From NCBI GenBank assembly GCA_038217285.1, contig JBBQPO010000184.1, positions 1-12,237 of the forward strand: a stretch of 12,237 nucleotides of DNA, in the 5' to 3' direction. A program made the translations under genes and the position numbers. The notes under the pieces were generated by a model. That model saw nothing but the letters and a program-made list of their open reading frames with translations, had not been told where the DNA came from and ran no database searches. Below, in pieces: positions 39 through 11,659 of this stretch. This stretch comes from Chthonomonadales bacterium. Its GTDB lineage: Bacteria; Armatimonadota; Chthonomonadetes; Chthonomonadales; Chthonomonadaceae. The first letter of the stretch is position 1; each line of letters opens with the position of its first letter.

Positions 39-136
39 GTGAGCATGGTCTCCTGGGAGCATTGTGTGATGGCTATAGATTCACCACACAACCCAACAAT
101 TCCTTTGGTTTGGAAGGCGACTTTTCGGCCGCGCTT
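1..136 (-). mobile_element. Probable left end of an insertion sequence (IS5/IS1182-like DDE element), running off the window
   Basis: On the minus strand, CTAG (140-137) is followed by AAGCGCGGCCGAAAAGTC (terminal-IR-like), then AGGAG (54-50) and an ATG at 38 opening a transposase-like N-terminus. The upstream sacsin ORF loses its character at this point. The other end is not visible. Confidence 0.5.
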
Positions 137-2051
137 CTAGCGTCGTGTAAGGCACCGACGCAGGGAGCAAGACCACAGCCTCGGAAGAAATCATAGTAAA
201 GAGACGATGAACGCTTTCGAGATTAAGGCGCAGAGTTTTTACGCCGCACTCCTGAAAGGCTTCCCGGATCTTGTGCAAAAGTACAGATTGCCAGGATTTC
301 GTTGCTGTCTGACCGAGGGCTGGATTTTCCATTTGATCATTGCAATGCGCTTGAGGCGCGTTCAGAAATGTCGTCAGATAGTCCAGCATCTCCCTCTGAC
401 GGAATACCTCGTTGGCTGGCATACTGTTCAATAATGAGGGAAGCAGGGGCTGCCAGGATGCGGACGGCGCACTGATCAGTCGAGGCAGTTCTGAAAACGT
501 GATCGGTATGTTTTGGCAGAGAGTCAGTTCTGGAAACAAGACAAAAAGAACCGACAGCTGATCTGTCGGTAGCGTGGGAAGAATATAGTAGGGTTGTTCG
601 GCTGGCAGCAACTGCCACGCGATCCCATCCAATGTTAGGCAGGCCATCCATTGATGCTGGCCGCAAAGAGCTGCCTCTTTTCCTGCCAACAATTTGCAAG
701 TGGAGAGCGCTTCCGTCAATCCACAGATTTCATGGGAAGAGAGCAGGAGATTACTGGCAAAATCCCGAAGCGCAGGCAACACCAGTGGAAGCAGGGTCCG
801 CTGCTCCAACGCCCAGTTCCAGTCTCCTGCCAGTATTTTGTGTTGATCCGTGTATTCCATCCGTGGTTCACCTGACGATAGCACAACATCACGCCGTCCA
901 GCATCCACAAAGTAGCATCCGTGCAGATGTAGACGGTAACTCCGACTGGCACCAGGAATATACTGCGTCTCTTCGCTATCTGTTAAGGGAAGAAAAACAT
1001 TGCGAGAGAGGCGGAGTGCGGCGGTTGGCTGATCGCAGAATGGCAACTGCTGAAATACTACGGCGGCATGTGGGCGAGTCTTGTCTTTCTCCTGAGTGCT
1101 TTCACCAGGTTTCTCTCCCCGCTTAGAAACCTTGGGCCAATCTTTACAATCCCGCATCTGATCGAAAATGAGATCCTGGCTTAAAACCTCCTGTCCGCAG
1201 TAAGAATAGTTCTGACGTTGCCCAAATTTATCTGTACACCCAATGGAGCCCTGTATTATCCCCGATAGTGTTCCTTCTTGTCGGTTGCCTTTATCTGCGG
1301 GATACCGACGGCGCAGCGCTCCCGTGTTCAGGGATACACAGAGGTGCGGTGCTTCGAAGTTTTGCCAATAGGTAACGGTTTGGAGATTTCGAAGCAGGGG
1401 GAGTAGTTCCGCGGCGTTGCGCGGAAAGTCTTCCGTCAGGATCTCGTCCAACGAGCAAAGTGCTGGCTGAACGATGGGTTCAACATCATCCAAGAGCGCA
1501 TCACATTTTAGAGGGATCCAGAGGCAAAACCAGGTGGGGATGTCGTGCAACCAGCCACCTATTGTTGATTTCAAAAGCGCGGTTATATCAGCGTCACAAG
1601 TCCAGTCGGTGTGGTACTCAGTTCCTTCCCACGGATTGAGCAGGCCTGGGTTCGAAGGAGATAGATATTCAGGCCCCTTTAAGCCCTGCTGATCATCGGA
1701 GCCGAAATAGAAAAATGCTTCACAGATATGAAAGATGCTCTTGAGCCCACGCCCAAATTTTCCTATCGCAAAATCATCCCCGCCCTTTGAGCCAATACCA
1801 ATCTGGGTAAAGGCAATAGCGTCTTTGGGAAGAAAAGGGCCATTGTTGAGGACGATAAGCGCGGGAACTCGCAACAGTGGATTGCTGTGACCCGCAAATC
1901 CGCCATGACTAGCGAGATAAAGGGTATCCGCTTGCGCATCATCTGCGTTTTGCACCAATTCCTTGAGAATAGAGCGAGCAACGTACTGATCGCGCAAAAG
2001 ACTACGGAGGTTTTCGACAACGCCATACGGATCAAGGACATAATTTGCCAT
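81..2051 (-). CDS. Sacsin N-terminal-like GHKL (HSP90-type) ATPase domain protein, probably 3'-truncated by IS insertion
   Basis: 656-aa ORF with Bergerat-fold motifs LKELVQNADDA, VLNNG and IGKFGRGLKSIFHI, plus sacsin-like FLPL and LHGCYFVDAGRR. AGGGG RBS at 2062-2058. The last 18 aa (EARPKSRLPNQRNCWVVW) lie beyond the CTAG junction. Confidence 0.8.
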   Translation of the reverse strand: MANYVLDPYGVVENLRSLLRDQYVARSILKELVQNADDAQADTLYLASHGGFAGHSNPLLRVPALIVLNNGPFLPKDAIAFTQIGIGSKGGDDFAIGKFGRGLKSIFHICEAFFYFGSDDQQGLKGPEYLSPSNPGLLNPWEGTEYHTDWTCDADITALLKSTIGGWLHDIPTWFCLWIPLKCDALLDDVEPIVQPALCSLDEILTEDFPRNAAELLPLLRNLQTVTYWQNFEAPHLCVSLNTGALRRRYPADKGNRQEGTLSGIIQGSIGCTDKFGQRQNYSYCGQEVLSQDLIFDQMRDCKDWPKVSKRGEKPGESTQEKDKTRPHAAVVFQQLPFCDQPTAALRLSRNVFLPLTDSEETQYIPGASRSYRLHLHGCYFVDAGRRDVVLSSGEPRMEYTDQHKILAGDWNWALEQRTLLPLVLPALRDFASNLLLSSHEICGLTEALSTCKLLAGKEAALCGQHQWMACLTLDGIAWQLLPAEQPYYILPTLPTDQLSVLFVLFPELTLCQNIPITFSELPRLISAPSASWQPLLPSLLNSMPANEVFRQREMLDYLTTFLNAPQAHCNDQMENPALGQTATKSWQSVLLHKIREAFQECGVKTLRLNLESVHRLFTMISSEAVVLLPASVPYTTLEARPKSRLPNQRNCWVVW

Positions 2052-2168: not shown

Positions 2169-2247
2169 TGTAATCAGACATTTTATCTGCCCTTCTCCTT
2201 ATGTGGTGAAATGTCTGATAAAAACATCTTTTGCAGGCATTTTGTCC
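2145..2247. promoter_or_regulatory. Inverted-repeat array, candidate AbiEi autoregulatory operators
   Basis: ATCAGACATTT (2173-2183)/AAATGTCTGAT (2209-2219) and GGACAAAA (2145-2152)/TTTTGTCC (2240-2247) share a symmetry axis at 2196. Also AATGTC-N10-GACATT (2161-2182) and AAATGTCTG-N16-CAGGCATTT (2209-2242). AbiEi antitoxins are known to repress their own promoter via inverted repeats. Confidence 0.55.
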
Positions 2248-2257
2248 GATCAAAACC

Positions 2258-2869
2258 ATGAATACACAGGATCCACAACACGAATCTGTTTGTTCTCCCT
2301 CTCTGGCCGATGGCATATTGCGGGTGCGCGATATGGCGCAGCAGGGAATCTCCCGTCAGACTATCCAACGGATGACAGAGGAAGGGGAGTTGCTCCGCAT
2401 CGGGCGTGGCCTCTATAGTCGTCCCGATGCTGTCGTCACCGAAAACCACACACTGGCTCAGGTCTGCGCCCGGGTTCCGCATGGCGTTATCTGTCTGACT
2501 TCCGCTCTGCAGTTTCATGAACTGACCACCCAGAGCCCCTGGCAGGTCTGGCTGCTGATCGAGCGGCATGCCCGCGCTCCCAAGTTGGACTATCCGACCT
2601 TGCGAATCATGCGGGCCAGCCCCGAGTTTCTTGCCGAGGGCGTGGAAGAACATAAGATCGAGGGAGTGACGGTGCGGGTAACCAATGTCGCCCGGACCGT
2701 GGCCGACTGCTTCAAGTACCGCAATAAGATCGGGTTGGCTGTCGCTATGGAGGCATTGCGGGAATGTCTGGGCGAACGCCGCACCGACAGAGCCTCTCTG
2801 CATCGCTACGCCCGCCTCTGTCGGGTGGAGCGTGTAATGCAACCTTATCTGGAGATACTGGCGCTATGA
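2258..2869 (+). CDS. abiEi: Type IV toxin-antitoxin system AbiEi-family antitoxin / transcriptional regulator
   Basis: N-terminal wHTH (GISRQTIQRMTEEGELLRIGRGLY), VICLTSALQFHELTTQ and ARTVADCFKYRNKIGLAVAMEAL motifs. Stop overlaps the next start (ATGA, 2866-2869). ATG 2258 preferred over TTG 2231. Confidence 0.9.
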   Translation: MNTQDPQHESVCSPSLADGILRVRDMAQQGISRQTIQRMTEEGELLRIGRGLYSRPDAVVTENHTLAQVCARVPHGVICLTSALQFHELTTQSPWQVWLLIERHARAPKLDYPTLRIMRASPEFLAEGVEEHKIEGVTVRVTNVARTVADCFKYRNKIGLAVAMEALRECLGERRTDRASLHRYARLCRVERVMQPYLEILAL

Positions 2870-3812
2870 ATGAGCAGAATACACGGCCCATAACCAATGT
2901 AGCGGCCTCCATGCGGCAACGACTGCTCAATCTCTCGACGGTCCGCCAGGATAACTTCAACCGCCTGCTTACTCAGTACGCACTGGAGCGTCTCCTCTAT
3001 CGCATCAGCCGTTCGCCTCATAGCGAACATTTTATTCTCAAAGGCGCTATGCTGTTCCTCCTCTGGATGGAGGAGCCACATCGCCACACGCGGGATCTGG
3101 ATCTCTTGGGCACGGGTGATCCGGCCCCAGAGCGTCTGACGGCTCTATTCCAGGAGATATGCATTCTGGAGGTCGCAGAGGATGGTATGGTCTTCGATCC
3201 GACAACAGTGACGGCTAAGAACATTCGAGAGGAGAATATGTACGGAGGGGTGCGGGTAAGGCTAACGGCCTTTCTAGAGAAGGCGCGTATTCCCCTGCAG
3301 ATCGATGTTGGCTATGGCGACGCTGTCACTCCTGATCCTGAAGCCATGACCTTTCCGACACTGCTGGACTTTCCGCCGCCGCTCTTGCGTGCATACGCCC
3401 GAGAGACGGTCATCGCCGAGAAACTGAGCGCCCTGATAACCCTGGATATGGACAACAGCCGCATGAAGGATTTCTTTGACTTATGGATCCTGACAAAGCA
3501 GTTCGGCTTCGAGGGAGAGCAACTGGGTCAGGCCGTTGTCGCTACGTTTGCCAGGCGCAGCCTACGCCTTCCCGAGGGAACGCCCACAGGCTTATCGGAG
3601 ACGTTCTGGGGTAGTCCGGCCAAGCAAGTCCAGTGGCGGACATTCGTAAGACAGAGCGTATCGCCATCCCTACAGACGCTGACGTTGGAAGAGGTGATCG
3701 ACTTTATCGCTTCCTTTTTATCGCTTCCTTTTTGCTGCCGCTTCTGGACGCGCTGAGTAAAGGAAACGAACTCCGCAAAATGTGGGCACCAGGTGGACCC
3801 TGGCAGACCTAA
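2866..3812 (+). pseudogene. abiEii: AbiEii/AbiGii-family nucleotidyltransferase toxin, frameshifted near the 3' end (current ORF 2866-3756, 296 aa; restored 310 aa ending at TAA 3810-3812)
   Basis: ERLLYR, FILKGA, HTRDLDL, QIDVGYGD, IAEKLSA and NSRMKDFFD motifs. A 14-bp duplication at 3703-3730 shifts the frame; removing it gives ...FIASFLLPLLDALSKGNELRKMWAPGGPWQT*. Whether the shortened protein is inactive is unknown. Confidence 0.85.
3703..3730 (+). repeat. Perfect 14-bp tandem duplication (TTTATCGCTTCCTT x2)
   Basis: 3703-3716 is identical to 3717-3730, followed by TTT microhomology (3731-3733). Confidence 0.95.
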
Positions 3813-3882
3813 GAAACTGAAGCAAGGGGCATTCCTTCCCTGTACCCCATTTCGGTAAGCGCCTGTAAAGGCCAAAAGCGGT

Positions 3883-3919
3883 GCAGAGTCAGGGCGAGCA
3901 CGTCTCAGCCCGACTCTGC
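3883..3919 (-). terminator. Hairpin at the MFS stop codon, candidate terminator between convergent units
   Basis: GCAGAGTC-a-GGGC-GAG-cacgt-CTC-a-GCCC-GACTCTGC forms 15 bp with two 1-nt bulges. A short TTTT follows about 5 nt later on the minus strand. The weak U-tract and overlap with the stop codon lower confidence. Confidence 0.35.
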
Positions 3920-5155
3920 TCTGCAATAATTGCGCAGCACCGGGGCACGGGATGCGATCCAGGCGACGGCCAGCAGGCAGCCCATTCCGCCGCTGATGAC
4001 CGACCAGGGCGCGCCCGCCACCCCTGCCACCAGTCCGGCCTCCAGATTTCCGAGCTGCGGTCCGCCCATGAAGAAGATCATATTGATGGCCGTCATGCGC
4101 CCGCGCAGATGGTCCGGTGTGCCCATCTGACGAATTGTCTGCCGTAGGATGCTGCTGACGGTATCCGCCGCGCCTGCCACGGCCAGCGTCGCCAGCGAGA
4201 GCCCGAAGCTATGCGACATGCCGAACACGACCGTCGCGGAGCCGTAGACGGCGACCGCTACGAGCATCGTCAGGCCCTGCCGCATGACCGGGCGTCGGAA
4301 AGCCATGACCGAACCGGCCCCCACGGAGCCGGCGGCGGCGGCGGCGGTCAGAAGGCCGTAACCACGGGCGTCCACACGCAGAATGTCGCGGGCGAAAACC
4401 GGCAGCAGCGCTTCGGCGGAAGAGAAGAACGTGGCGGTGAAATCGAGCGCTATCGTCCAGACCTGGATCGGCTGGCTCCAGACAAACTTCAGCCCGTCCC
4501 GCAGTCCCGCGATATTCACCGGGCTCCGCTCGCTCTGCGCACGCTCCATAAGCTCCGGCTTGATGCAGAGCAGCGCGATCAGTACCGCCAGAAAGGAAGC
4601 GGCATTGATCCCGTAGATCAGGGCCAGGCTGCCGCGCTGGATCAGAGTGCCCGCCAGATAGGGGCCCACGACCGTGGCCATCTTGAAGGCGGTGGAGGTG
4701 AGCGACGCCGCATTGGAGAAGTGCTTGCGCGGCACGAGGTTGGGGATCAACGACTGTCGGGCCGGGCTGTCGAAGGCGAGCGCGCCCGCCGTCACGGCGT
4801 TCACCGCATAGAGGCTCGCCGCAGAGATGACGCCTTTCCAGGTCAGAAAGGCCAGCATGGCGGCTCCGGCGGCGAAGACGGTCTGCGTGACGAGGAGAAT
4901 CTTGCGGCGATCCTTCGCATCCGCGATAGCCCCGCCTACCAGCGAGAAAAAGACGAGCGGGATAAAGCGGTAGAGGCCGATCAGGCCCAGCGCGACCATC
5001 GAGTGGGTCAGGCCGTAGACGTGCCACCGGACGGTCGCATCCTGCATCTTCGTGCCGACCGCAGAGACGGTCAGTCCGATCCAGAGAAGGCGGAACGCCG
5101 GGCTACGCAGCGCCGGAAATCGGCCTGCGGGTGGTTCTTCCGGCTGGCCGGTCAG
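3905..5155 (-). CDS. MFS transporter (EntS / transmembrane secretion effector-like), probable exporter
   Basis: Multiple hydrophobic segments, N-terminal ALRSPAFRLLWIG...VSAVGTKMQ, motif A GGAIADAKDRRKIL, FDSPARQSLIPNLVP and TPDHLRGRM. The start most plausibly is CTG 5155 overlapping the ggt stop. ATG 5353 would overlap ggt by about 200 nt. Confidence 0.9.
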   Translation of the reverse strand: MTGQPEEPPAGRFPALRSPAFRLLWIGLTVSAVGTKMQDATVRWHVYGLTHSMVALGLIGLYRFIPLVFFSLVGGAIADAKDRRKILLVTQTVFAAGAAMLAFLTWKGVISAASLYAVNAVTAGALAFDSPARQSLIPNLVPRKHFSNAASLTSTAFKMATVVGPYLAGTLIQRGSLALIYGINAASFLAVLIALLCIKPELMERAQSERSPVNIAGLRDGLKFVWSQPIQVWTIALDFTATFFSSAEALLPVFARDILRVDARGYGLLTAAAAAGSVGAGSVMAFRRPVMRQGLTMLVAVAVYGSATVVFGMSHSFGLSLATLAVAGAADTVSSILRQTIRQMGTPDHLRGRMTAINMIFFMGGPQLGNLEAGLVAGVAGAPWSVISGGMGCLLAVAWIASRAPVLRNYCRAESG

Positions 5156-6807
5156 TAGCCTGAGGCCTTTCCGCTGATACGCGCGTCCGCCACGCCGACA
5201 TACGTTCCCTGCGGGGAGACCCGGATCGTATGAGAGTCGCCCTGGAACGGGAGAGGCGTGGGCGCGACGATCCGGTGGCCCATCGCGGTCAGCGCGGCGA
5301 CGGTCTCGGGAAAGCGCTCCGGCGATTCCATGCGGATATGGTCGGGGAACCACTCCTGCGAAAAGCGCGGATGCTGAACCGCCTCCTCGACCGACATCCC
5401 GAAATCGAGTACGCTCACGAGGATGTTCAGGATCGTGTTCGGAATGGCCCGACTGCCGGTGCTCCCGGTGACCAGGAGAACCTTCCCCTCCTGCGCCACA
5501 ATGGTCGGCGTCATCGAGCTGATGGGCCGCTTACGGGGAGCGATGGTGTTGGCGGCGGCAGCGATGTTGCCTTTCGTATCCGTCTCGCTGGGGAAGAGAT
5601 TGAAGGCGCGCATGTTGTTGTTGAGCAGGAAGCCCATGTCCTTCACCACGACCCGGGAGCCCCAGCGGCGCTCCAGGGTGTAGGTGTTGGCGACCGCCAT
5701 GCCGTTTTTATCGATGACGCCGAAATGCGTCGTGCTCGTCGATTCGTCCGCCAACGGAAGGGAGGCGGAGAGGGAGGCGCTGGGAGTGGCCTTTCGCAGG
5801 CTTATCGTAGCGGCTCGGGCGCGGGCGTAGGGACGAGACGTGAGCCAGTCCGGGTTTTGGACGAACGCCGGATCCCCCGGATAGCGGGCGCGGTCGTACT
5901 GTGCGCGACGCATCACCTCCGCCATCAGATGCACCGTCTCCGCCGACCATCGCGCCGAGCCTTTCAGGTCGAAACAGTCCAGCATGTTCAGCGCTTCGAT
6001 CAGGCAGACACCGCCCGCGCTCACCAGCGGCGGCACGGTGATGTCGTACAGCCCGCGATAGCGCGTGGTGAGCGGCGTTCGTTCGAGGGCCCGATAGGCG
6101 GCCAGATCGTCGGCGGTGATCAGCCCCTGCCCGCGCTCCATCTCCGCGATCAGCCGGTCGGCGATGGGGCCACGGTAAAAGGCGTCCGGGCCGAGGGTCG
6201 CGAGCAGTTCGAGGGTGTGGGCCAGATCCGGCAGCACCATGCGGTCCCCTGCCTGCCAGAGTCCGCCGGTGTTGCCATAGACACGCTGAAGTTCGGCATG
6301 TTCGGGCGCGGCGGCCAGGGTTTCGTTCGTGGACTGAGCCAGAGAGGCGTCCACGAGGAACCCCTCACACGCGAGCGCGATGGCAGGCTGGACGAGCGCA
6401 GACCAGGGCAGTGTGCCGAAGCGGCGATGCGCCATTTCGAGGCCCCGGATCGTCCCCGGCGTCGCGACCGCTCGGTGGGTGAACTGCGACTCCTCCGGGG
6501 TAACCATGGTCGGCCAGGCGGCCGCCGGGGCCGTCTCGCGATAGTCGAACGCCACCGGTTCGCCACCGCTCGGAGCGGGATGGACGAGCATGAAGCCCCC
6601 GCCTCCGAGATTACCGGCCAGGGGGTAGGTGACCGCGAGCGCAAACGCCGTCGCGATGGCGGCATCGACAGCGTTGCCGCCCTGCCGGAGGATCGAGACA
6701 CCCACATCGGAGGCAGGGGCGGAGACGGAGACGACCATCCCGTTGTTGCCTTCGACGCAGTGGGTTGATTCTGCCTGGTTCGGCGTGTCGTGGCGAGAAA
6801 GGCTCAT
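5152..6807 (-). CDS. ggt: Gamma-glutamyltransferase-family Ntn hydrolase, no signal peptide, atypical acyl-binding pocket
   Basis: GGNAVDAAIATAFALAV, GNLGGGGF, FDYRETAP, nucleophile TTHFGVID (Thr359) and RPISSMTPT. No hydrophobic leader. GGGGG RBS-like run at 6818-6814. Confidence 0.92.
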   Translation of the reverse strand: MSLSRHDTPNQAESTHCVEGNNGMVVSVSAPASDVGVSILRQGGNAVDAAIATAFALAVTYPLAGNLGGGGFMLVHPAPSGGEPVAFDYRETAPAAAWPTMVTPEESQFTHRAVATPGTIRGLEMAHRRFGTLPWSALVQPAIALACEGFLVDASLAQSTNETLAAAPEHAELQRVYGNTGGLWQAGDRMVLPDLAHTLELLATLGPDAFYRGPIADRLIAEMERGQGLITADDLAAYRALERTPLTTRYRGLYDITVPPLVSAGGVCLIEALNMLDCFDLKGSARWSAETVHLMAEVMRRAQYDRARYPGDPAFVQNPDWLTSRPYARARAATISLRKATPSASLSASLPLADESTSTTHFGVIDKNGMAVANTYTLERRWGSRVVVKDMGFLLNNNMRAFNLFPSETDTKGNIAAAANTIAPRKRPISSMTPTIVAQEGKVLLVTGSTGSRAIPNTILNILVSVLDFGMSVEEAVQHPRFSQEWFPDHIRMESPERFPETVAALTAMGHRIVAPTPLPFQGDSHTIRVSPQGTYVGVADARISGKASGY

Positions 6808-6839
6808 GGCGCGCCCCCGTGCAGGAGAGAATGCATCGT

Positions 6840-8081
6840 CTACTCCACCTCGTAGATGTCGGACCAGGAAGCGATCCGATCGACGCTTCTGCGAACGGTA
6901 TCTGCATCGTTCGACTGCAACTCGATATAGAGCGGCGCCCGATAACCGCTGCGGGCGAGCCCCACCGGCTGCCCTGCCACGCCGCGCACCTCATGGTAGA
7001 GATAGCCCGGCAGATCCACCAGTTCGTCCAGATGCCGTATCGCGCGGAGAGCGCCGTTCTGAGCCGGGAACGGCGTGACGATGGCGGCAGATCCCTGCTG
7101 TTTCCGACTCAGATCCGGAATCTTGCCCACCAGAATATCGTGATAAGCGCCAAGCTCATCTATGCCGTAGGCCAGCTTCAAAATACGCGGCCGATTGCCG
7201 CCGGGCCGGGCGGCGATCTCACCCAACCGGGTGCCGATAAACTCGACATGGGCGGCACAACTCGTCATATCCAACGCGCGCACCCCTGCTGTCGCCAGAG
7301 CGTCCAGTCGCTGCTGCTCCACGGCAGGCAGGACCGAAGGCACGATGCGGGCGAAATGATGGTAGTCGTCGATGCCGATATCTTTGCCTGTCAGAACGTC
7401 CACGATCGGCAAAGTGTAGACCCTGCCGGTGTTGTCGATCAGGCAGTCGATCGAGGTGTTGGCACCCTGGAGATACTCCGCCACGATGACCTTGAGCTGC
7501 GTGCCCGGTTTGCCCAGTCTTGCGTAGTACGCCGGGACTTCGCTCTGCATCACGCGATAGTGGCGCAGCAACGTCTCCTCGTCCGGGTTGGAGGTGGACC
7601 ACATGCTGGCGGAGACGTTGGAGGGCTGCAGAAAGACCGGATAGCCCAGTTCGGCGGCGAAGCGGATCAGGTCCGCTTCCGACGTCACGACATGAAAACG
7701 GGCCGAGGCGTCCGGCCCGATCCGCTCTTGAAACCGTTCGCGCATCACGCTCTTATCGAGGCAGAGTTGCGCGGCGGAGGCGGAGATGCTGGGCAGACCG
7801 AGTTGCGCTGCTACCGCCGCCGTCTGCGCCACATAGAACTCGATGACGTTGAAGAGACAGGAGACTCCGCACCGCTCCTGGACTCCCCGCACCGCCTCGA
7901 CAAGCTCTTCCAGTGGGCGGGAAAAGTCGAACCGCTCGACCACCTTGAACTGCGACACATCCGCGAGGCGCTGTCTGTTGTTGGTATCTACCAGCACTCC
8001 CAGCGCGAGACCTCGCTCCTGCAAGGTCTCGTACTCGCCGCGCCGGACCATCCCCAAAAACAGCACGATTCCCGATTCCAA
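6840..8081 (-). CDS. ATP-grasp ligase (L-amino-acid-ligase-like)
   Basis: LCLDKSVMRERF, LGYPVFLQP, EYLQG, AHVEF and GEIAARPGG motifs. GGAG (8092-8089) lies 7 nt before TTG 8081, giving 413 aa without overlapping the aminotransferase. Confidence 0.85.
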   Translation of the reverse strand: MESGIVLFLGMVRRGEYETLQERGLALGVLVDTNNRQRLADVSQFKVVERFDFSRPLEELVEAVRGVQERCGVSCLFNVIEFYVAQTAAVAAQLGLPSISASAAQLCLDKSVMRERFQERIGPDASARFHVVTSEADLIRFAAELGYPVFLQPSNVSASMWSTSNPDEETLLRHYRVMQSEVPAYYARLGKPGTQLKVIVAEYLQGANTSIDCLIDNTGRVYTLPIVDVLTGKDIGIDDYHHFARIVPSVLPAVEQQRLDALATAGVRALDMTSCAAHVEFIGTRLGEIAARPGGNRPRILKLAYGIDELGAYHDILVGKIPDLSRKQQGSAAIVTPFPAQNGALRAIRHLDELVDLPGYLYHEVRGVAGQPVGLARSGYRAPLYIELQSNDADTVRRSVDRIASWSDIYEVE

Positions 8082-8112
8082 TAGTTTTCTCCATGATTTG
8101 AGGGATGCCTCT

Positions 8113-9303
8113 TTAGTCCAGCGAACGAACAAACCGATTCAGACTCTCCAGACCCTCCGTGATCTCCGCCTGGGGGATCGCATACGAGATCCGCAGATGC
8201 CGGTCGGAGCCGAACGCCGACCCCGGCACCACCGCGATATGCGCGTACTGCAGGAGCATCTCGGCCAGAACCTCGACAGACTCCAGGCGATGGCCGTCGA
8301 TAGACTTGCCCAGCAGGCTGCTCACCTCCGGAAAGAGGTAGAACGCGCCTTCCGGGTGAACGAACGGCAGGCCGGGGATCTTCTCCATCAGGTTCATCGC
8401 GGCGGTGCGCTGGCTCGCCAGCTGAGTGCGAACGCCTTCCACAAACGCATCCTCCGACGGCGCGAGCGCGGCCAGAGCGGCGTACTGGACCAGATTGCTG
8501 GCATTGGACGCCGTGTGGCTCTGGAGGTTGCCGATGGCCTTGACGACGGCCTTCGGCGCAGCGAAAAACCCGGCTCTCCACCCGGCCATGCAGTAGGTTT
8601 TCGAGAGCGAGCCGACGAGGATCGTCCGCTCCTTCATCTCTGGGACCAGCTTCACGATATTATGGTGCGTGGCAGGCGCATAGACCAGGGCCTCGTAACA
8701 CTCGTCGAAAATGCAGGTCAGGTTGTGTTTCAAGACAAGGCGCGCCAGTTGCTCCAGAACCTCGGCGCCGTAGACCACGCCGGTCGGGTTGTTGGGCGTG
8801 TTGAGAATGATACCCCGAGTCCGGGGGTTGATCAGTCGTTTCAGGGCGTCGATGTCGATCTGGAAATCGTTCTCGACGGTCGAGAGAAAGACAGGGGTCG
8901 CCCCTGCCAGACGCACCTGCTCCGGAAAGGTGACCCAGTAGGGAGCCGGAATGATCACCTCATCACCCGGCTCAAAGGTCACCATCGCCGCATTGAAGAG
9001 GGCCTGTTTGGCCCCGGCGGTGAAGCCTACCTCCTCGATGTCGTACGATGTGCCGGTCTTCTCGGAGACTCTTTGCGCCAGCCGCTCCCGCAGCTCACGA
9101 ATCCCGAGCGTGTCGGTATACTGCGTGCGACCGGCATCGATGGCCTGTCGCGCCGCCTGCTTGATGTTGGGGCTCGTGTCTTGGTCGAGCTCTCCGGCGG
9201 CGAAGTTGATGATATTCACACCTTCGGCCCGCAGCTTGCGGGCGCGGTTACGCATGCCGGATGTCTGAGATCCTCCGAGGCTCTGCGCGCGCTGAGACAG
9301 CAT
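8113..9303 (-). CDS. PLP-dependent class I/II aminotransferase (aspartate-aminotransferase-like)
   Basis: GELD, AGAKQAL, PYWVTF, NTPNNPTG, DECY, SLSKTYCMAGWRAG (PLP lysine) and LRISY motifs. GGAGG lies 8 nt before ATG 9303; 396 aa. Confidence 0.93.
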   Translation of the reverse strand: MLSQRAQSLGGSQTSGMRNRARKLRAEGVNIINFAAGELDQDTSPNIKQAARQAIDAGRTQYTDTLGIRELRERLAQRVSEKTGTSYDIEEVGFTAGAKQALFNAAMVTFEPGDEVIIPAPYWVTFPEQVRLAGATPVFLSTVENDFQIDIDALKRLINPRTRGIILNTPNNPTGVVYGAEVLEQLARLVLKHNLTCIFDECYEALVYAPATHHNIVKLVPEMKERTILVGSLSKTYCMAGWRAGFFAAPKAVVKAIGNLQSHTASNASNLVQYAALAALAPSEDAFVEGVRTQLASQRTAAMNLMEKIPGLPFVHPEGAFYLFPEVSSLLGKSIDGHRLESVEVLAEMLLQYAHIAVVPGSAFGSDRHLRISYAIPQAEITEGLESLNRFVRSLD

Positions 9304-9307
9304 CGTC

Positions 9308-10207
9308 CTAACCTCCCTCGAACATTCGTTCCAGCGCGTCGATCCGGTTGGCGCCGACATCCTCGGAGACCTTCTTTACCGTAGAGATCTCCTTCTCGAC
9401 TCCGCCGCTCGAGGGCAGTTCCGCCAGCGCACGGAAGACGCGGTCCATGGCGGCATGGGCGGCGCGCAGGCCCTGATTGGCGTGGATGATGTGCGAGGCT
9501 CCTGCCGCGAACAGCTCCGTCTTCGGGATGTGGGAGATACGCGTGGGCGCGAGGAAAACGGGGGTTCGCCGCTGCCAGCCCCGGCAGAAATCGAGGATCT
9601 CCCCGCCAGTTCCATCGACCGACTGGACGAAGACGGCGTCGGCGCCGGCATCGGCATACGCGGAGGCGCGGCTCAACGCCTCTTCCACGCCGAGGCAGGC
9701 CAGGAAGGCTTCGGTGCGCGCGACGATCATACAGTCGCCCTCGATGTCCGCGACCGCAGCTTTGGCGGCACGGACGCGCGCCGAATGCTCTTCGGGCGTC
9801 ACCAGGATGCGCTCGAGGCCATCGTAGAGGCTGCAGCGTTTGGAGCTGGGATTGTCTTCGATGCAGAGGGCGGTGGCGCCCGAGCGGACCATCTCTTTGA
9901 CGACATGGTAGATTTTCAGTGGATCCCCATACCCGGCATCCATATCGACGACGATAGGGAGGGAGGTGTTGCGGCGCACCAGGCGCACCATGCCCAACAT
10001 CTCCTCGGCGCCGAGGATGCCCGCGTCCGGCAGTCCCATCGCCGCGCTGTTGCAGAAGCTGCTCACCCACACGAAATCGAAGGGGTTCTGGGCAGCAAGC
10101 AGGGTGGACAAGCCATCGTGGACGCCGACACCGGTTTGACCGCGGGGATCGAGGAGGCGTCGCAAATTGACTTGCGACGAGACGTGGCTCGCAGGCTCAT
10201 GAATCAT
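9308..10207 (-). CDS. PEP mutase / isocitrate lyase superfamily enzyme with a PepM-like scaffold and non-canonical catalytic loop
   Basis: HDGLS, WVSS, GLPDA, DMDAGYG, IEDNPSSKRCSLY, VARTEA, EEALSRASAYADAGADAVF, APT and IIHANQGLRAA motifs. GGAGAG lies 10 nt before ATG 10207; 299 aa. The symbol pepM is withheld because EDKxxxxxNS is not matched. Confidence 0.88.
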   Translation of the reverse strand: MIHEPASHVSSQVNLRRLLDPRGQTGVGVHDGLSTLLAAQNPFDFVWVSSFCNSAAMGLPDAGILGAEEMLGMVRLVRRNTSLPIVVDMDAGYGDPLKIYHVVKEMVRSGATALCIEDNPSSKRCSLYDGLERILVTPEEHSARVRAAKAAVADIEGDCMIVARTEAFLACLGVEEALSRASAYADAGADAVFVQSVDGTGGEILDFCRGWQRRTPVFLAPTRISHIPKTELFAAGASHIIHANQGLRAAHAAMDRVFRALAELPSSGGVEKEISTVKKVSEDVGANRIDALERMFEGG

Positions 10208-10374
10208 GACTGGTTTTCTCTCCGAAAGATGTGATCCCTGCCAAATCTCGTATAAGGCTGCTGCCAGGGAGAGCAAGGTAACCGACTCTGGTTACGCTCC
10301 GCCGACGCGGTCTGTTGGATTCGTTCGTTGGATCCTGGGGGTGACGATGCTAAGCTATGCGAGAGCATGCGTAG

Positions 10375-10403
10375 ATTATGCCCTCTTAGACGAACTTTTG
10401 CAC
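10375..10403 (-). promoter_or_regulatory. Candidate sigma70-type promoter for the five-gene operon
   Basis: GTGCAA (10403-10398), 17 nt spacer, CATAAT (10380-10375); implies a leader of about 160 nt. Confidence 0.35.
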
Positions 10404-10482
10404 GTCCCGTATCTTAGAGTATTCTGAGGATCGATTTGCGTGGTGACGGAGGGGCGTTTTGCGGGTGCGTAGAGAGCGACGT

Positions 10483-11058
10483 TTAGCGTGGTAGACCGAC
10501 TTCGACATCCAGTCCGTCGCCTTGAACGACGACTCCACGGATAACGGACTTTGCCGCGTTACCCTTCCAGTCATCGGGCAGGTGACCGATTTTGACATCC
10601 GCGAGGCGTGGTGGAACCACCTTACAGAGTTCGGTAAACAGTCCCTGGATCGCAGGCAGGCCGCCGATTGGCTGCAGAATCGGCATAAGCTTCGGAGGAA
10701 CGGTGTCGAGTCTGGCATTCGCCAGGCGGACGTTCGTGAGGAGGAACTCCCCGGCGACAGGATCGTAGTGCAGGTCGCCGTCCAGCGAGAGGCGTCCGGT
10801 GATTGCAGCATCGGGCGTGGCCTCGAGGCGCGTCTTCGCCTCGACGCCGATCCGGTCCGCGTGGAGCAGAACCTGCGGATCGCTGAAGACGACTTTCAGG
10901 AGCAACTCCCGCTTCTCGATAGGGAAGCGCACGGCCAACTGCTCCTGTATCTTCGCCTTCGAGATATGGACGGTGACACTGTCTCGCGCCGGGCATCCGG
11001 TCAACGCCAGAAGCGCCGAAACAGCGAGAAGGTACGCTACAATACGATGGATCTGCAT
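10483..11058 (-). CDS. Putative lipoprotein, DUF1439 (YceB)-like
   Basis: From ATG 11058: basic N-terminus, hydrophobic stretch and lipobox LTGC (Cys22), then ISKAKIQEQLAVRFPIEK, SDPQVLL and LHYDPVAGEFLLTN, which resemble DUF1439; 191 aa. Confidence 0.7.
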   Translation of the reverse strand: MQIHRIVAYLLAVSALLALTGCPARDSVTVHISKAKIQEQLAVRFPIEKRELLLKVVFSDPQVLLHADRIGVEAKTRLEATPDAAITGRLSLDGDLHYDPVAGEFLLTNVRLANARLDTVPPKLMPILQPIGGLPAIQGLFTELCKVVPPRLADVKIGHLPDDWKGNAAKSVIRGVVVQGDGLDVEVGLPR

Positions 11059-11083
11059 GACAATCTTCTTCCCGGCGAAACGG

Positions 11084-11659
11084 TTATAAACGTGATTTTC
11101 GCAGCATTGCGTTAATCTCTGCCGGGTCGAACGCTTCGGCATCGAACTCCCCGCCGATCCATTCGAGCAGCTCTTCATGCTGCGCGTGTTCGGGATCCGC
11201 AATCGCCTCCAGAAACTCAGAATATCCCCACGCCCCGCCGCAATCCTCCGGCGGACAGGCCCGCTTTCCCGTGACGCAGAACGGGTAGGACTGCCCGTCT
11301 TCTGGGGGCAGGATCTTTTCCACGACGATCAGATGCTGCCAATCGTCGCCAAAGTCATAATCGTAGTAGAACTGGCTCTTCGCGGTAGGCGCTATCTGTG
11401 ACAGGCGTATTCTGTTCTCATTCTCCATCCAGTCATCGAGTTCCGGGTCGGGCTCTCCATAGCTGGTATCTCCCACCCGAAAAGCGTGCATATGTCCCCC
11501 GCCCCATCCCATGACCCCCAAGATCAGATGGTGCAGTTTTGGCAGGGTCATATTGGCGGAAACCAGCACACGTCGCCAGACAGGCGGGCGGATGCCCCGC
11601 AGGGTGATCTTCAATTGGTAGATGTCCGCTGTTTCGGTCTTGCTCAAGGCTTTCCGCAT
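11084..11659 (-). CDS. Plasmid pRiA4b ORF-3 family protein
   Basis: YQLKITLRGIRPPVWRRVLV, LHHLI, HMHAF, YDYDFGDDWQH and RACPPEDCGG motifs; GGAGG RBS at 11669-11665. Confidence 0.92.
   Translation of the reverse strand: MRKALSKTETADIYQLKITLRGIRPPVWRRVLVSANMTLPKLHHLILGVMGWGGGHMHAFRVGDTSYGEPDPELDDWMENENRIRLSQIAPTAKSQFYYDYDFGDDWQHLIVVEKILPPEDGQSYPFCVTGKRACPPEDCGGAWGYSEFLEAIADPEHAQHEELLEWIGGEFDAEAFDPAEINAMLRKSRL

Follow-up and report, generated by a model that had tools for sequence, protein, structure and literature searches.

The window, by which we mean the whole 12,237-nt stretch of Chthonomonadales DNA analysed here, carries at positions 3905-10207 five genes, all on the minus strand, that follow one another in the 5′ to 3′ order PEP-mutase/isocitrate-lyase-family enzyme, AspAT-like aminotransferase, ATP-grasp ligase, GGT-family protein and MFS transporter. 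Analysis of the open reading frames and junctions bore out the five co-directional genes, with gaps of 4, 31 and 32 nt and a 4-nt overlap, that a first-pass annotation of this DNA had claimed. The cassette and its borders comprise the following features.

10208..10290, minus strand: 5′ leader with ribosome-binding site (GGAGAGAAAA) and possible operon promoter (leader conservation)
9308..10207, minus strand: PEP-mutase/isocitrate-lyase-family enzyme of an off-motif clade, 299 aa (Pfam PEP_mutase, 5e-49)
8113..9303, minus strand: class I/II PLP aminotransferase, AspAT-like, subgroup Ib type, 396 aa (Aminotran_1_2, 1.7e-75)
6840..8081, minus strand: ATP-grasp ligase of the L-amino-acid-ligase type, 413 aa (BacD PDB matches)
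5152..6807, minus strand: GGT-family Ntn hydrolase/transferase, 551 aa (G_glu_transpept, 3.9e-150)
3905..5155, minus strand: MFS transporter of the MFS_3 / EntS-DHA3 (efflux) type, about 416 aa (MFS_3, 4.8e-52)
3872..3924, minus strand: likely operon terminator, a hairpin overlapping the MFS stop codon and followed by a short U run (fold)
3806..10434, no strand: span of the shared unit, outside which the window has no DNA similarity to its nearest relative

The mutase-like gene starts with ATG, 10 nt downstream of a GGAGAG sequence, and is followed after 4 nt by the aminotransferase (ATG), after a further 31 nt by the ATP-grasp gene (TTG) and after another 32 nt by the GGT gene (ATG). The ATP-grasp frame opens at 8132, and its start was set at 8081, where orthologue alignments begin at residue 1-5 of the resulting form. 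The MFS start that gives the 4-nt overlap with GGT is CTG, an unusual codon; no ATG, GTG or TTG lies between a GTG at 5353 and the first MFS membrane helix, and the overlapping CTG is kept in all three loci with that junction (the window, L001 and L002). About 60 nt directly 5′ of the mutase-like ATG are conserved among the window, L001, L002, L003 and L026, and the DNA farther upstream diverges. A sigma-70 consensus scan gave no site, so the operon promoter is only putative. The terminator hairpin folds at -32.1 kcal/mol (z = -3.3; equalled by 0 of 200 shuffles), and the consensus terminator scan missed it on account of a T run of only 4. By blastn, the nearest relative, L001, matches the window in a single segment (3806-10434, 92% identity) and L002 matches it over 3923-10258 (78%). 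The G+C content is 0.644 inside the shared unit vs 0.529 to its left and 0.578 to its right, and a search for terminal repeats found none.

Cassettes with the same gene order were found in Armatimonadota, Verrucomicrobiota, Planctomycetota and Binatota, the relatives all being MAGs or metagenomes; as the loci were retrieved by patterns derived from the cassette clade, the following counts describe a non-random sample. In 24 of the 26 loci that are informative on it, the aminotransferase comes after the mutase-like gene (it is absent from L009 and L025); the corresponding counts are 19/21 for the ATP-grasp gene, 13/14 for GGT and 15/17 for an MFS gene. Flanking genes are not conserved. The arrangement is more than chance: other genomes show the same order, and the cassette is found with very little change in bacteria from soil and water that belong to several phyla. 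The main test by which the first-pass annotation could have been refuted, whether the genes co-occur elsewhere, did not refute it, as the five functions recur in one order in four phyla or more. That the genes are merely neighbours serving no common pathway is very improbable: the empty promoter scan would agree with it, but it is opposed by the shared order between unrelated flanks, by gaps of 4 to 32 nt, and by the retention of a transporter through two replacements with non-orthologous MFS genes. The MFS_3 / EntS-DHA3 type is found, besides the window, only in L001 and L002 (in the window it scores 174 bits against TIGR00900 and 155 bits against EntS, both under their cut-offs), and each of the three transporter versions has its highest scores with efflux families.

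[quoted passage not shown] In place of EDKx5NS it reads EDNPSSKRCS, the clade form EDNPxSKRCS being invariant in 40/40 aligned members, and Q195 stands where PepM has H190. Its best PDB matches are PepM 5unc (9e-46) and the phosphonopyruvate hydrolase (PPH) 2dua (2e-43), and the counterparts of the PepM Mg2+ ligands and of R159 (D61, D88, D90, E117 and R164) are invariant in the clade. Three positions fixed in canonical PepM are replaced (K116N, N122C and H190Q in PepM numbering). The N122 position has been credited with the mutase/hydrolase split (available part of PMC3266647). It also aligns with the catalytic Cys (KRC) of the lyase branch. A chemistry other than that of PEP mutase is therefore conceivable: it is possible, although unlikely, that the PepM-scaffold enzyme makes or rearranges another 2-oxo acid, by way of the Cys at the lyase position or a changed pocket, and that this acid is transaminated, ligated, processed and exported. 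The three substitutions, the failed equivalog cut-offs and the K-R-C string, which resembles the KxCGH motif of lyases, would all suit such an enzyme. The loop, however, has PepM length and sequence (CSLYDG vs NSLHDG) and not CGH, and the methylisocitrate lyase model is outscored on this protein by the PepM and PPH models.

The genomic company of similarly substituted relatives also argues against a non-phosphonate product. In a tree of 78 rows, the cassette clade (27 rows) is sister to a clade formed by L028-L032 with 99% SH-aLRT support, and it alone combines Cys at 122 with Gln at 190. Three members of the sister clade, L029-L031, share N119 and Q195 with the cassette clade, have Ser in place of Cys, and directly adjoin a split Ppd-like ThDP decarboxylase and a 455-aa, HEPD-like cupin with 36-37% identity to the cupin of canonical PepM-Ppd loci; L029 and L030 also contain PhnJ. 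A separate Cys-bearing group with EDNxFPKRCS (L035, L037, L040 and L041) likewise adjoins Ppd-like genes. Off-motif enzymes from outside the cassette clade were represented by 32 loci; the DNA fetched for 23 of these includes a Ppd-like gene, and another five have an Ldh_2 dehydrogenase with an AMP-binding enzyme, which points to a general rule that pairs a PepM-like enzyme with one consuming a 2-oxo acid. Fold, Mg2+ ligands and Arg are common to the cassette enzyme, canonical PepM-Ppd loci and the off-motif Ppd loci (L029-L031, L035, L037 and L040-L044), as is such a consuming neighbour; the aminotransferase takes the place of Ppd in the cassette clade, where Ppd was found in 0/28 loci.

That aminotransferase (best PDB match AspAT 1j32, 2.4e-87) has orthologues that are 69-94% identical. 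It retains the Lys that forms the Schiff base (in SLSK), the Arg of HLRISYA, NNPTG and the Lys in AGAKQAL, whereas GEPDF has given way to GELDQ, fixed in 21/21. The ATP-grasp protein reaches 26.8 bits for the ATP-grasp_4 domain against a cut-off of 27, and on NCBIfam 79 bits for the PRK02186 N-terminal ATP-grasp and 31 bits for BacD; its nearest Atlas clusters combine ATP-grasp_4 with LAL_C2. Among solved structures, its sequence matched only the BacD/YwfE-type L-amino-acid ligases (PDB 3vmm, 3wnz and 3wo1), and although these share the DK, H-x-E and E...R...G motifs with it, the match is weak (E about 1e-10, far under the BacD family threshold). In its presumed nucleotide site, the cassette ligase has two clade-fixed changes, K152Q (Gln for the Lys of the LKP strand) and E201A (Ala for the first Glu of EE(F/Y)L), with Q152 fixed in 20/20 orthologues. 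Of 111 wider relatives, 109 keep K152 and E201, so it is uncertain whether the cassette ligase uses ATP in the ordinary way.

The GGT-family protein scores 464 against TIGR00066, above the cut-off of 357.85, and matches the periplasmic gamma-glutamyltranspeptidase of E. coli (PDB 2e0w and 2dbu; 8e-129 for 2e0w) over its full length. Both have the Thr nucleophile site (TTHF) and, for holding the alpha-carboxylate, an Arg (DYRE) and Ser-Ser. In the cassette versions, by contrast, E. coli D433 is replaced by A or G and N411 by E (12/12 each), R or F stands at the D432 position, and the lid loop varies in its region; in the E. coli enzyme such residues serve to bind the alpha-amino group. No signal peptide was found in the window's version. 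Judged by eye, 8 of 15 orthologues are predicted to be cytoplasmic, the window's included, and 7, with a signal peptide or lipobox, to be secreted or lipid-anchored, so one fixed role is hard to fit to both. The alignments of the mutase-like, ATP-grasp and GGT proteins confirm that, as the first-pass annotation had stated, three of the four enzymes are altered in their active sites, and the altered ATP-grasp and GGT would also fit a non-phosphonate pathway with unusual substrates throughout.

The extracytoplasmic GGT versions lend something to a further alternative, namely a unit that catabolises or salvages phosphonoalanine conjugates, in which the GGT-like hydrolase frees phosphonoalanine from a gamma-glutamyl or peptide conjugate, the MFS protein moves it, the aminotransferase yields phosphonopyruvate, and the PepM-like enzyme either hydrolyses this or turns it into PEP, which is the favoured direction. 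Nutrient-releasing GGTs usually lie outside the cytoplasm. The phosphonoalanine catabolic operon of Variovorax sp. Pal2 combines a PepM-family hydrolase (PalA) with a transaminase, a transporter and a LysR regulator (available part of PMC3266647), PPH departs from PepM at the same position as the cassette enzyme, N122, and PnaA-type transamination is reversible (available part of PMC11867202). However, PalA-type enzymes keep EDK...TS and H190, and a bona fide PPH (L046, 393 bits vs a cut-off of 374) nests in the canonical PepM clade, far from the cassette clade, and forcing the two together, a grouping named after the tree had been seen, was rejected (AU p = 8e-5). The PalA-like alternative allowed for by the first-pass annotation is weakened by this distance. 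Moreover, an ATP-dependent ligase would have no role in catabolism, yet is kept in 19/21 loci; the transporters resemble efflux families; neither a LysR-type regulator nor a phosphonate ABC transporter is conserved around the cassette loci; and the decarboxylase found beside the nearest clades is irreversible, a mark of the biosynthetic direction. The Pal2 operon, as far as the available part of its description goes, has neither ligase nor GGT, and the cassette lacks a LysR regulator. We consider this catabolic role improbable, somewhat more so than the non-phosphonate one.

The closest published precedent is the Streptomyces phosphonoalamide (pna) pathway, in which PnaD is the PepM, the AspAT-like phosphonopyruvate transaminase PnaA pulls its unfavourable reaction, and PnaB and PnaC are ATP-grasp ligases (available part of PMC11867202); the PepM, AspAT-like and ATP-grasp logic proposed from the first reading is that of this pathway. 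Both systems place a PepM-family enzyme directly beside an AspAT-family transaminase able to couple with it, followed by ligation of the L-amino-acid-ligase type and, for the cassette, a predicted small polar product like that of pna. The cassette differs from what is available on pna in a mutase-like enzyme without EDKX5NS and H190, in one ligase (with K152Q and E201A) instead of two, in fixed GGT-family and MFS genes, and in its hosts, which are Armatimonadota, Verrucomicrobiota, Planctomycetota and Binatota and not Actinomycetota or Bacillus. The words 'glutamyl' and 'MFS' are absent from the available text of PMC11867202, and no GGT appears there or in the phosphonate cluster papers found by literature search, in keeping with the initial statement that GGT is not known as part of phosphonoalamide clusters; no published description of the five-gene set was found.

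We favour, with a probability of about 0.5, the reading that an off-motif PepM and a coupling transaminase make phosphonoalanine, which is then ligated, exported and subjected to GGT-like processing. At about even odds, the cassette would be an autonomous biosynthetic operon that has spread horizontally and whose product, a small amide or peptide, is exported and built on an acidic amino acid resembling aspartate, L-phosphonoalanine being the likeliest. The mutase-like enzyme would isomerise PEP to phosphonopyruvate, and the AspAT-like enzyme would transaminate this to phosphonoalanine, thereby pulling the unfavourable isomerisation. The single ligase may couple phosphonoalanine to another amino acid through an alpha-peptide or gamma-glutamyl-type amide bond, the phosphoryl donor being open given the changed nucleotide pocket. 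Export by the MFS protein is suggested by the efflux-type fit of all three transporter versions, and the GGT-family enzyme could cleave or transfer an acyl group of the compound, as a step of maturation, of pro-drug release or of protection of the producer itself; the window's version would do so within the cell, and those with a lipoprotein signal beyond the membrane.

The phosphonoalanine reading draws on the tight spacing, leader and terminator hairpin, on an order kept across phyla between unconserved flanks, on the retained Mg2+ ligands and R159 counterpart with best matches to PepM and PPH, on the Ppd-like, cupin and PhnJ neighbours of the off-motif sister and cousin clades, and on the PnaD/PnaA/PnaB/PnaC precedent (available part of PMC11867202). 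Against it stand the failed PepM tests, the N122 change, the single ligase, the ATP-grasp losses, a GGT without an assigned step and the missing aminotransferase in L009 and L025. The first-pass interpretation as a whole is partly supported: the gene set and order hold and the proposed pathway logic matches that of pna, while one ligase stands against two, the side of the membrane on which GGT acts varies among versions, and the chemistry is one that we infer. Current phosphonate mining requires a perfect EDKX5NS and therefore skips the cassette, as the first-pass annotation had anticipated; one published pipeline, a further precedent for the phosphonoalanine reading, already admits PepMs beside Ppd in which one or two residues of the motif are missing. 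The probable product of the cassette is an exported small molecule, one that would escape the usual searches for phosphonate producers.

Five co-directional genes on the minus strand of the window form a compact cassette, for which the first-pass annotation had given gaps of 4, 31 and 32 nt and a 4-nt overlap; the open reading frame (ORF) table and the junction sequences, from which the gene coordinates were taken, bear these spacings out:

9308-10207, minus strand: PEP_mutase-family protein (299 aa), the first gene and mutase-like first enzyme; ATG start with GGAGAG upstream
8113-9303, minus strand: class I/II aminotransferase; ATG start, 4-nt gap to the previous gene
6840-8081, minus strand: ATP-grasp protein, the candidate ligase; TTG start, 31-nt gap to the previous gene
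5152-6807, minus strand: GGT; ATG start, 32-nt gap to the previous gene
3905-5155, minus strand: MFS_3 transporter; CTG start, 4-nt overlap with the previous gene

The CTG of the transporter gene overlaps the GGT stop codon (CTGA) at 5153-5155, an arrangement repeated in two related loci (L001:9693 and L002:15015). No usual start codon lies within reach, the sole common one upstream of the first membrane helix being a GTG 66 codons earlier, located within the GGT gene, which would add an Arg/Pro/Gly-rich extension; translation appears to begin at the CTG. A hairpin of high stability (-32 kcal/mol, z = -3.3) lies over the transporter stop codon, and a leader of about 60 nt preceding the first ATG is kept among close relatives. 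Across the window, Rfam returned no match, a sigma-70 consensus scan found 0 sites, and a terminator-like scan gave 6 sites against 4.1 +/- 2.0 expected, which amounts to no signal.

The remainder of the window carries other genes. Convergent with the cassette, and ending about 150 nt from its terminator, is a type IV toxin-antitoxin pair made up of an AbiEi-like antitoxin (2231-2869, plus strand) and an AbiEii nucleotidyltransferase toxin (ORF 2764-3756, plus strand). A 656-aa protein at 81-2051 (minus strand) carries at its N-terminus an ATP-binding-like domain of the sacsin type, matched by Pfam SACS at 3.4e-16 and by NCBIfam at 65 bits (cut-off 50), and is otherwise without a match. Two genes in the same orientation as the cassette lie upstream of it at 10483-11659 (minus strand): one encodes a DUF1439-like protein with a lipobox-like LALTGC, a weak match whose 22.8 bits stay under the cut-off, and the other a PRiA4_ORF3 protein (1.6e-67). 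Neither was found beside the cassette in any other cassette locus examined.

A profile of the first enzyme was scanned against 185,579 species genomes, yielding 80 loci that were fetched with peptide patterns drawn from the cassette clade and whose proportions are not valid for the whole family. The window's own clade accounts for 28 of them (L001-L027 and L034), two of which end within the first gene and are uninformative. Counted by tblastn with the window's proteins, the aminotransferase is present in 24 of the 26 loci having at least 500 nt downstream (absent from L009 and L025), the ligase in 19 of 21 having at least 1.8 kb (absent from L009 and L011, where a 1.2-kb insertion shifts it beyond the contig end), the GGT in 13 of 14 having at least 4.5 kb (absent from L023) and the transporter in 15 of 17 having at least 3.1 kb (absent from L023 and from L004, whose contig stops inside the GGT gene). 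The co-occurrence of the five-gene set elsewhere, proposed as a check at first pass, is thus found across phyla, and that the five genes are chance neighbours is hardly credible. Clustering of all ORFs in 29 loci recovered only the five cassette functions, apart from one secreted ORF and, in some of the loci, a two-component system.

Hosts of the cassette include Chthonomonadales (Armatimonadota), many Verrucomicrobiota, Planctomycetota, one Binatia MAG and one 'Saccharimonadales' bin, with cross-phylum protein identities of 69-74% for the aminotransferase, 61-74% for the ligase and 60-71% for the GGT. Relatives of the mutase-like protein with no less than 59% identity make up at least 120 clusters (clustered at 90% identity), and those of the ligase with no less than 66% likewise at least 120. 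Genes flanking the cassette vary between loci. In the nearest relative, L001, the first enzyme is 98% identical in protein and the cassette 92% in DNA. On these comparisons, the cassette has moved among lineages as a discrete unit, since the DNA common to the window and L001 extends only over 3806-10434 and the flanks differ between loci. A block with a G+C content of 0.61-0.68 at about 3500-10500 of the window is set between flanks of 0.49-0.58, a contrast that is plain in the window and L014 and which, because it is missing in L002, L015 and L017, lends weak support to transfer. The repeat search of the window detected no terminal direct or inverted repeats bounding the cassette, and PLSDB plasmids held no close ligase relative, all 153 matching records being below 60% identity and the ten listed at 24-30%.

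Several loci carry additional features. One Verrucomicrobiales MAG has two copies, L023 (L023:5898-9315) and L024; in L023 the aminotransferase and ligase matches are truncated and the GGT is missing despite 6.6 kb of remaining contig, so that it looks like a decaying duplicate. A secreted protein of about 234 aa, matching no Pfam or NCBIfam model, accompanies the cassette in four loci (L010:16675-17379, L009:7133-7840, L005:2096-2797 and L017:19578-20312), and directly follows the mutase-like gene in L005 and L009. In seven Verrucomicrobial loci (L005, L007, L010, L012, L013, L025 and L034; for example, L012:185-2310 and L007:7559-9855), the cassette adjoins a HAMP sensor kinase and a response regulator of the OmpR type, the latter showing 57-82% identity between these loci; no such system is present in the window. 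Their best NCBIfam models are of the heavy-metal (czt/sil/cop) type, with scores below the cut-offs (regulator 224-239 bits versus 279, kinase 199-214 versus 292), and these neighbours could hint at regulation by metals and at a product that binds them.

The solved structures nearest by sequence to the first enzyme are the PEP mutases (PepMs) 5unc and 1m1b and the phosphonopyruvate hydrolase (PPH) 2dua. It scores 195.8 bits with the PepM equivalog model TIGR02320, against a cut-off of 319.55 and 365.9 for the canonical control L059. The PepM signature EDKX5NS reads EDNPSSKRCS in the window, with K replaced by N and N by C, the S being retained, and a motif of this type is invariant in 40 of 40 aligned clade members. 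Gln195 occupies the position of PepM and PPH His190, a residue that we take to sit in the phosphoryl pocket of PepM, and is likewise invariant within the clade. Among the 40 aligned members (56-98% identity), N119, P120, K123, R124, C125, S126, L127, Y128 and Q195 are all invariant, as are D61, D88, D90, E117 and R164, the counterparts of D58, D85, D87, E114 and R159 in the Mytilus numbering of PepM, the first four of which presumably form the Mg2+-binding set of PepM, alongside Arg159. Because the motif, Q195 and these counterparts are invariant, the alignment indicates an active site that is selected and distinct rather than decayed. The AspAT-like gene 4 nt downstream supplies the coupling neighbour looked for beside a PepM, as a candidate consumer of phosphonopyruvate.

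Membership of two other families is not borne out. As a PPH, the first enzyme falls below TIGR02321 (155.8 bits against a cut-off of 374.4, the reference L046 reaching 393.4), is without EDK...TS and lies outside the PPH clade. As a methylisocitrate or isocitrate lyase, it has K-R-C followed by SLY instead of GH, the catalytic loop of the lyase branch being, as we assume, K(K/R)CGH, and it remains below the family cut-offs (prpB, 138.6 versus 354.4; isocitrate lyase models, 46-49 bits).

In a quick IQ-TREE analysis of 78 rows with midpoint rooting, the cassette clade forms one group (support 86), sister to L028-L032 in a joint clade supported at 99%. Bona fide PPHs (L046, 393 bits versus the 374 cut-off, and L047) lie within the canonical PepMs, well away from the cassette clade. 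This placement bears on the salvage of phosphonoalanine conjugates, which we regard as an improbable role for the cassette. Against its hydrolase variant, a tree forcing the PPHs and the cassette clade into one group, defined after inspection of the tree, loses 88 log-likelihood units (p-AU 8e-5). In its favour, one active-site substitution is thought to split PPH from PepM, according to excerpts of a review (PMC3266647), and because the position concerned is the one altered here, a changed reaction of the first enzyme is possible on the alignment.

Many PepM-like proteins with other off-motif loops occur among the 80 loci. Gln at the His190 position is also found in L028-L031, which are linked to phosphonopyruvate decarboxylase (Ppd), and in a Streptomyces clade fused to FMN_dh. 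The enzymes of L029-L031, from the actinomycetes Amycolatopsis, a Pseudonocardiaceae MAG and a Frankia symbiont (L029:9857-13246, L030:5846-13280 and L031:9929-13318), have N, S and Q at the three altered positions (motif EDNPLxKRSSLY plus Gln190). Their gene directly adjoins a split, Ppd-like ThDP decarboxylase, for which the phosphonopyruvate and sulfopyruvate decarboxylase models score best, followed by a HEPD-like cupin of 455 aa that is 36-37% identical to the cupin of canonical PepM-Ppd loci (Kitasatospora, Planosporangium); L029 and L030 also contain PhnJ-like genes. From their gene content, these look like phosphonate clusters that would escape motif filters too. Cys at the first enzyme's Cys position recurs in a separate group on the canonical side of the tree (L035, L037, L040, L041 and L056), four of whose five members have a Ppd-like neighbour; the decarboxylase of L042 exceeds the Ppd equivalog cut-off (356 versus 312).

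Fusions are a further feature of these relatives. In Streptomyces and Streptosporangium (L067:10052-12100, L070:9989-12004, L072, L075, L076, L079 and L080), a PepM-like domain with the motif EDNxFPKRNS and Gln190 is fused to an FMN-dependent alpha-hydroxy-acid dehydrogenase, beside a split Ppd-like decarboxylase, a FemAB-like/GNAT protein, an NDK-like protein and an MFS_3 transporter. In Nannocystis and its relatives (L036:8722-12406, L038, L039, L055 and L033), the PepM-like domain is fused to or adjoins an AMP-binding enzyme and is preceded by a gene of the Ldh_2 (sulfolactate/malate dehydrogenase) family, so that, by gene content, a PepM-like enzyme again stands next to a putative 2-oxo-acid consumer.

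Outside the cassette clade, 32 loci are off-motif: the fetched DNA includes a Ppd-like gene in 23 of them, Ldh_2 plus AMP-binding genes in five and neither in four; Ppd accompanies 16 of 18 canonical rows and none of the 28 cassette loci, where an AspAT-like enzyme takes that neighbour's place. The common theme of these loci, judged by gene neighbourhood, is a PepM-like enzyme beside a predicted consumer of a 2-oxo acid. Such a neighbour is a known means of pulling the unfavourable conversion of PEP to phosphonopyruvate. A milder proposal, which we hold tentatively and at somewhat below even odds, is that the enzymes of the cassette clade and of its Ppd-linked sister clades are genuine mutases that form C-P bonds and are dropped by every motif filter, so that phosphonate producers would be under-counted.

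The first-pass annotation had also noted altered active sites in three of the four enzymes, which holds for the mutase-like protein, the ligase and the GGT, each change being fixed in the clade. The aminotransferase is an ordinary-looking AspAT relative (1j32, 2.4e-87) that has all catalytic residues and one fixed change in the substrate loop, GELDQ replacing GEPDF. BacD is the sole match to the ligase among solved structures; Pfam ATP-grasp_4 gives 26.8 bits against a cut-off of 27, some close homologues carry a precomputed LAL_C2 domain, and in feature space the protein is placed among the ATP-grasp_4/LAL_C2 families. A profile search of 1.84 billion representatives returned 4148 relatives at E <= 1e-3. 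Lys152 and Glu201, positions that we take from other ATP-grasp structures to bind the nucleotide, are present in 109 of 111 sequences (the window and 110 relatives), with Gln and Ala only in the window and its own cluster representative; Gln152 is fixed in all 20 cassette orthologues. The Mg2+ and catalytic residues K110, H278, E280, E288 and R292 are retained. The structure model of the ligase (19 close orthologues) is poor, with a mean pLDDT of 61 and residues 204-300 below 50. The GGT exceeds its family cut-off (TIGR00066, 464 bits versus 357.85) and keeps TTHF, with the autoprocessing Thr nucleophile, as well as the carboxylate-binding Arg of DYRE and Ser-Ser of SSM. At the position of E. 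coli Asp433, which presumably anchors the gamma-glutamyl donor by its alpha-amino group, 12 of 12 cassette GGTs have Ala or Gly, and at that of Asp432 they have Arg or Phe.

Three architectures can be distinguished. Architecture A (the window and L001-L004) comprises the mutase-like enzyme, aminotransferase, ligase, a GGT without a signal peptide and MFS_3; B (L006, L007, L010, L013, L014, L018 and L025) has an MFS_1 transporter between the ligase and a GGT without a signal peptide; and C (L012, L015, L016, L017, L021, L022 and L027) has a different MFS_1, less than 40% identical to that of B, in the same place and a GGT with a lipobox or signal peptide. In all three, the presence or absence of a signal peptide was judged by eye from the N-termini. 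The transporter, on these arrangements, has been swapped twice yet always kept in the cassette; in all architectures it best matches efflux-type families, every score being below cut-off. Transporter type and GGT signal peptide co-vary in 11 of 11 loci, which is not functional evidence because the genes adjoin and may move as one block.

Our preferred reading, to which we assign a probability of about one half, is that an off-motif PepM would isomerise PEP to phosphonopyruvate, which would be transaminated to phosphonoalanine, joined in a single ligation and exported, with the GGT-type Ntn hydrolase cleaving or transferring an acyl group either before export (A and B) or after it (C). The first three steps are modelled on the phosphonoalamide precedent, in which PnaA couples with PepM and prefers phosphonopyruvate, according to excerpts of PMC11867202. 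The GGT step is the weakest part of the proposal: extracellular release of a pro-drug would fit architecture C, and cytoplasmic tailoring or self-protection would fit A and B. A phosphonoalamide cluster combines PepM and an AspAT-like transaminase with two ATP-grasp ligases, whereas the cassette has the transaminase and one ligase, no second ligase being found either in the window or among the conserved genes. The cassette therefore falls outside the phosphonoalamide-type definition, and the PepM membership of the first enzyme is itself unproven.

Should the first enzyme turn out not to be a mutase, the cassette would be something further afield. That it is biosynthetic but makes something other than a phosphonate is, in our estimate, unlikely. 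A bolder and rather doubtful proposal holds that the PepM-scaffold enzyme, with its lyase-position Cys and Gln190, rearranges its substrate or forms a bond in a way unlike PepM, PPH and the lyases alike, that the ligase, whose nucleotide pocket is rebuilt, uses a non-ATP donor or activates a non-carboxylate group, and that the cassette makes a new class of exported acidic amino-acid amides, common in Verrucomicrobiota and Planctomycetota. Under this proposal the product might be a metal-binding compound, which is conceivable because the copper/silver-type two-component system adjoins the cassette in seven loci.

Phosphonate natural products include fosfomycin and phosphinothricin, and they are mined almost solely via PepM with a perfect EDKX5NS. 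This requirement appears in excerpts of published inventories and mining studies (PMC8942020, PMC12723261), and one preprint tolerates up to two missing motif residues, only beside Ppd or MpnS, the rest being binned as isocitrate-lyase superfamily. As anticipated at first pass, motif-filtered mining would skip the cassette, which is discarded under all three published rules. Database names of its relatives are automatic labels only ('phosphoenolpyruvate phosphomutase', 'biotin carboxylase', 'hypothetical'), and in the main text of freely accessible full-text articles we found no description of the PepM-like/aminotransferase/ATP-grasp/GGT set or of a GGT in a phosphonate cluster. The cassette is abundant in several poorly cultured phyla and invisible to motif filters. 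If the first enzyme is a mutase, the EDKX5NS rule is too strict, a whole branch of C-P biosynthesis, together with the Ppd-linked off-motif clades, is missing from surveys, and a new type of phosphonopeptide with a GGT-dependent step would await isolation. If it is not, the cassette marks novel chemistry on a well-studied scaffold. Either way, the 6.6-kb five-gene unit is small enough for direct heterologous expression.
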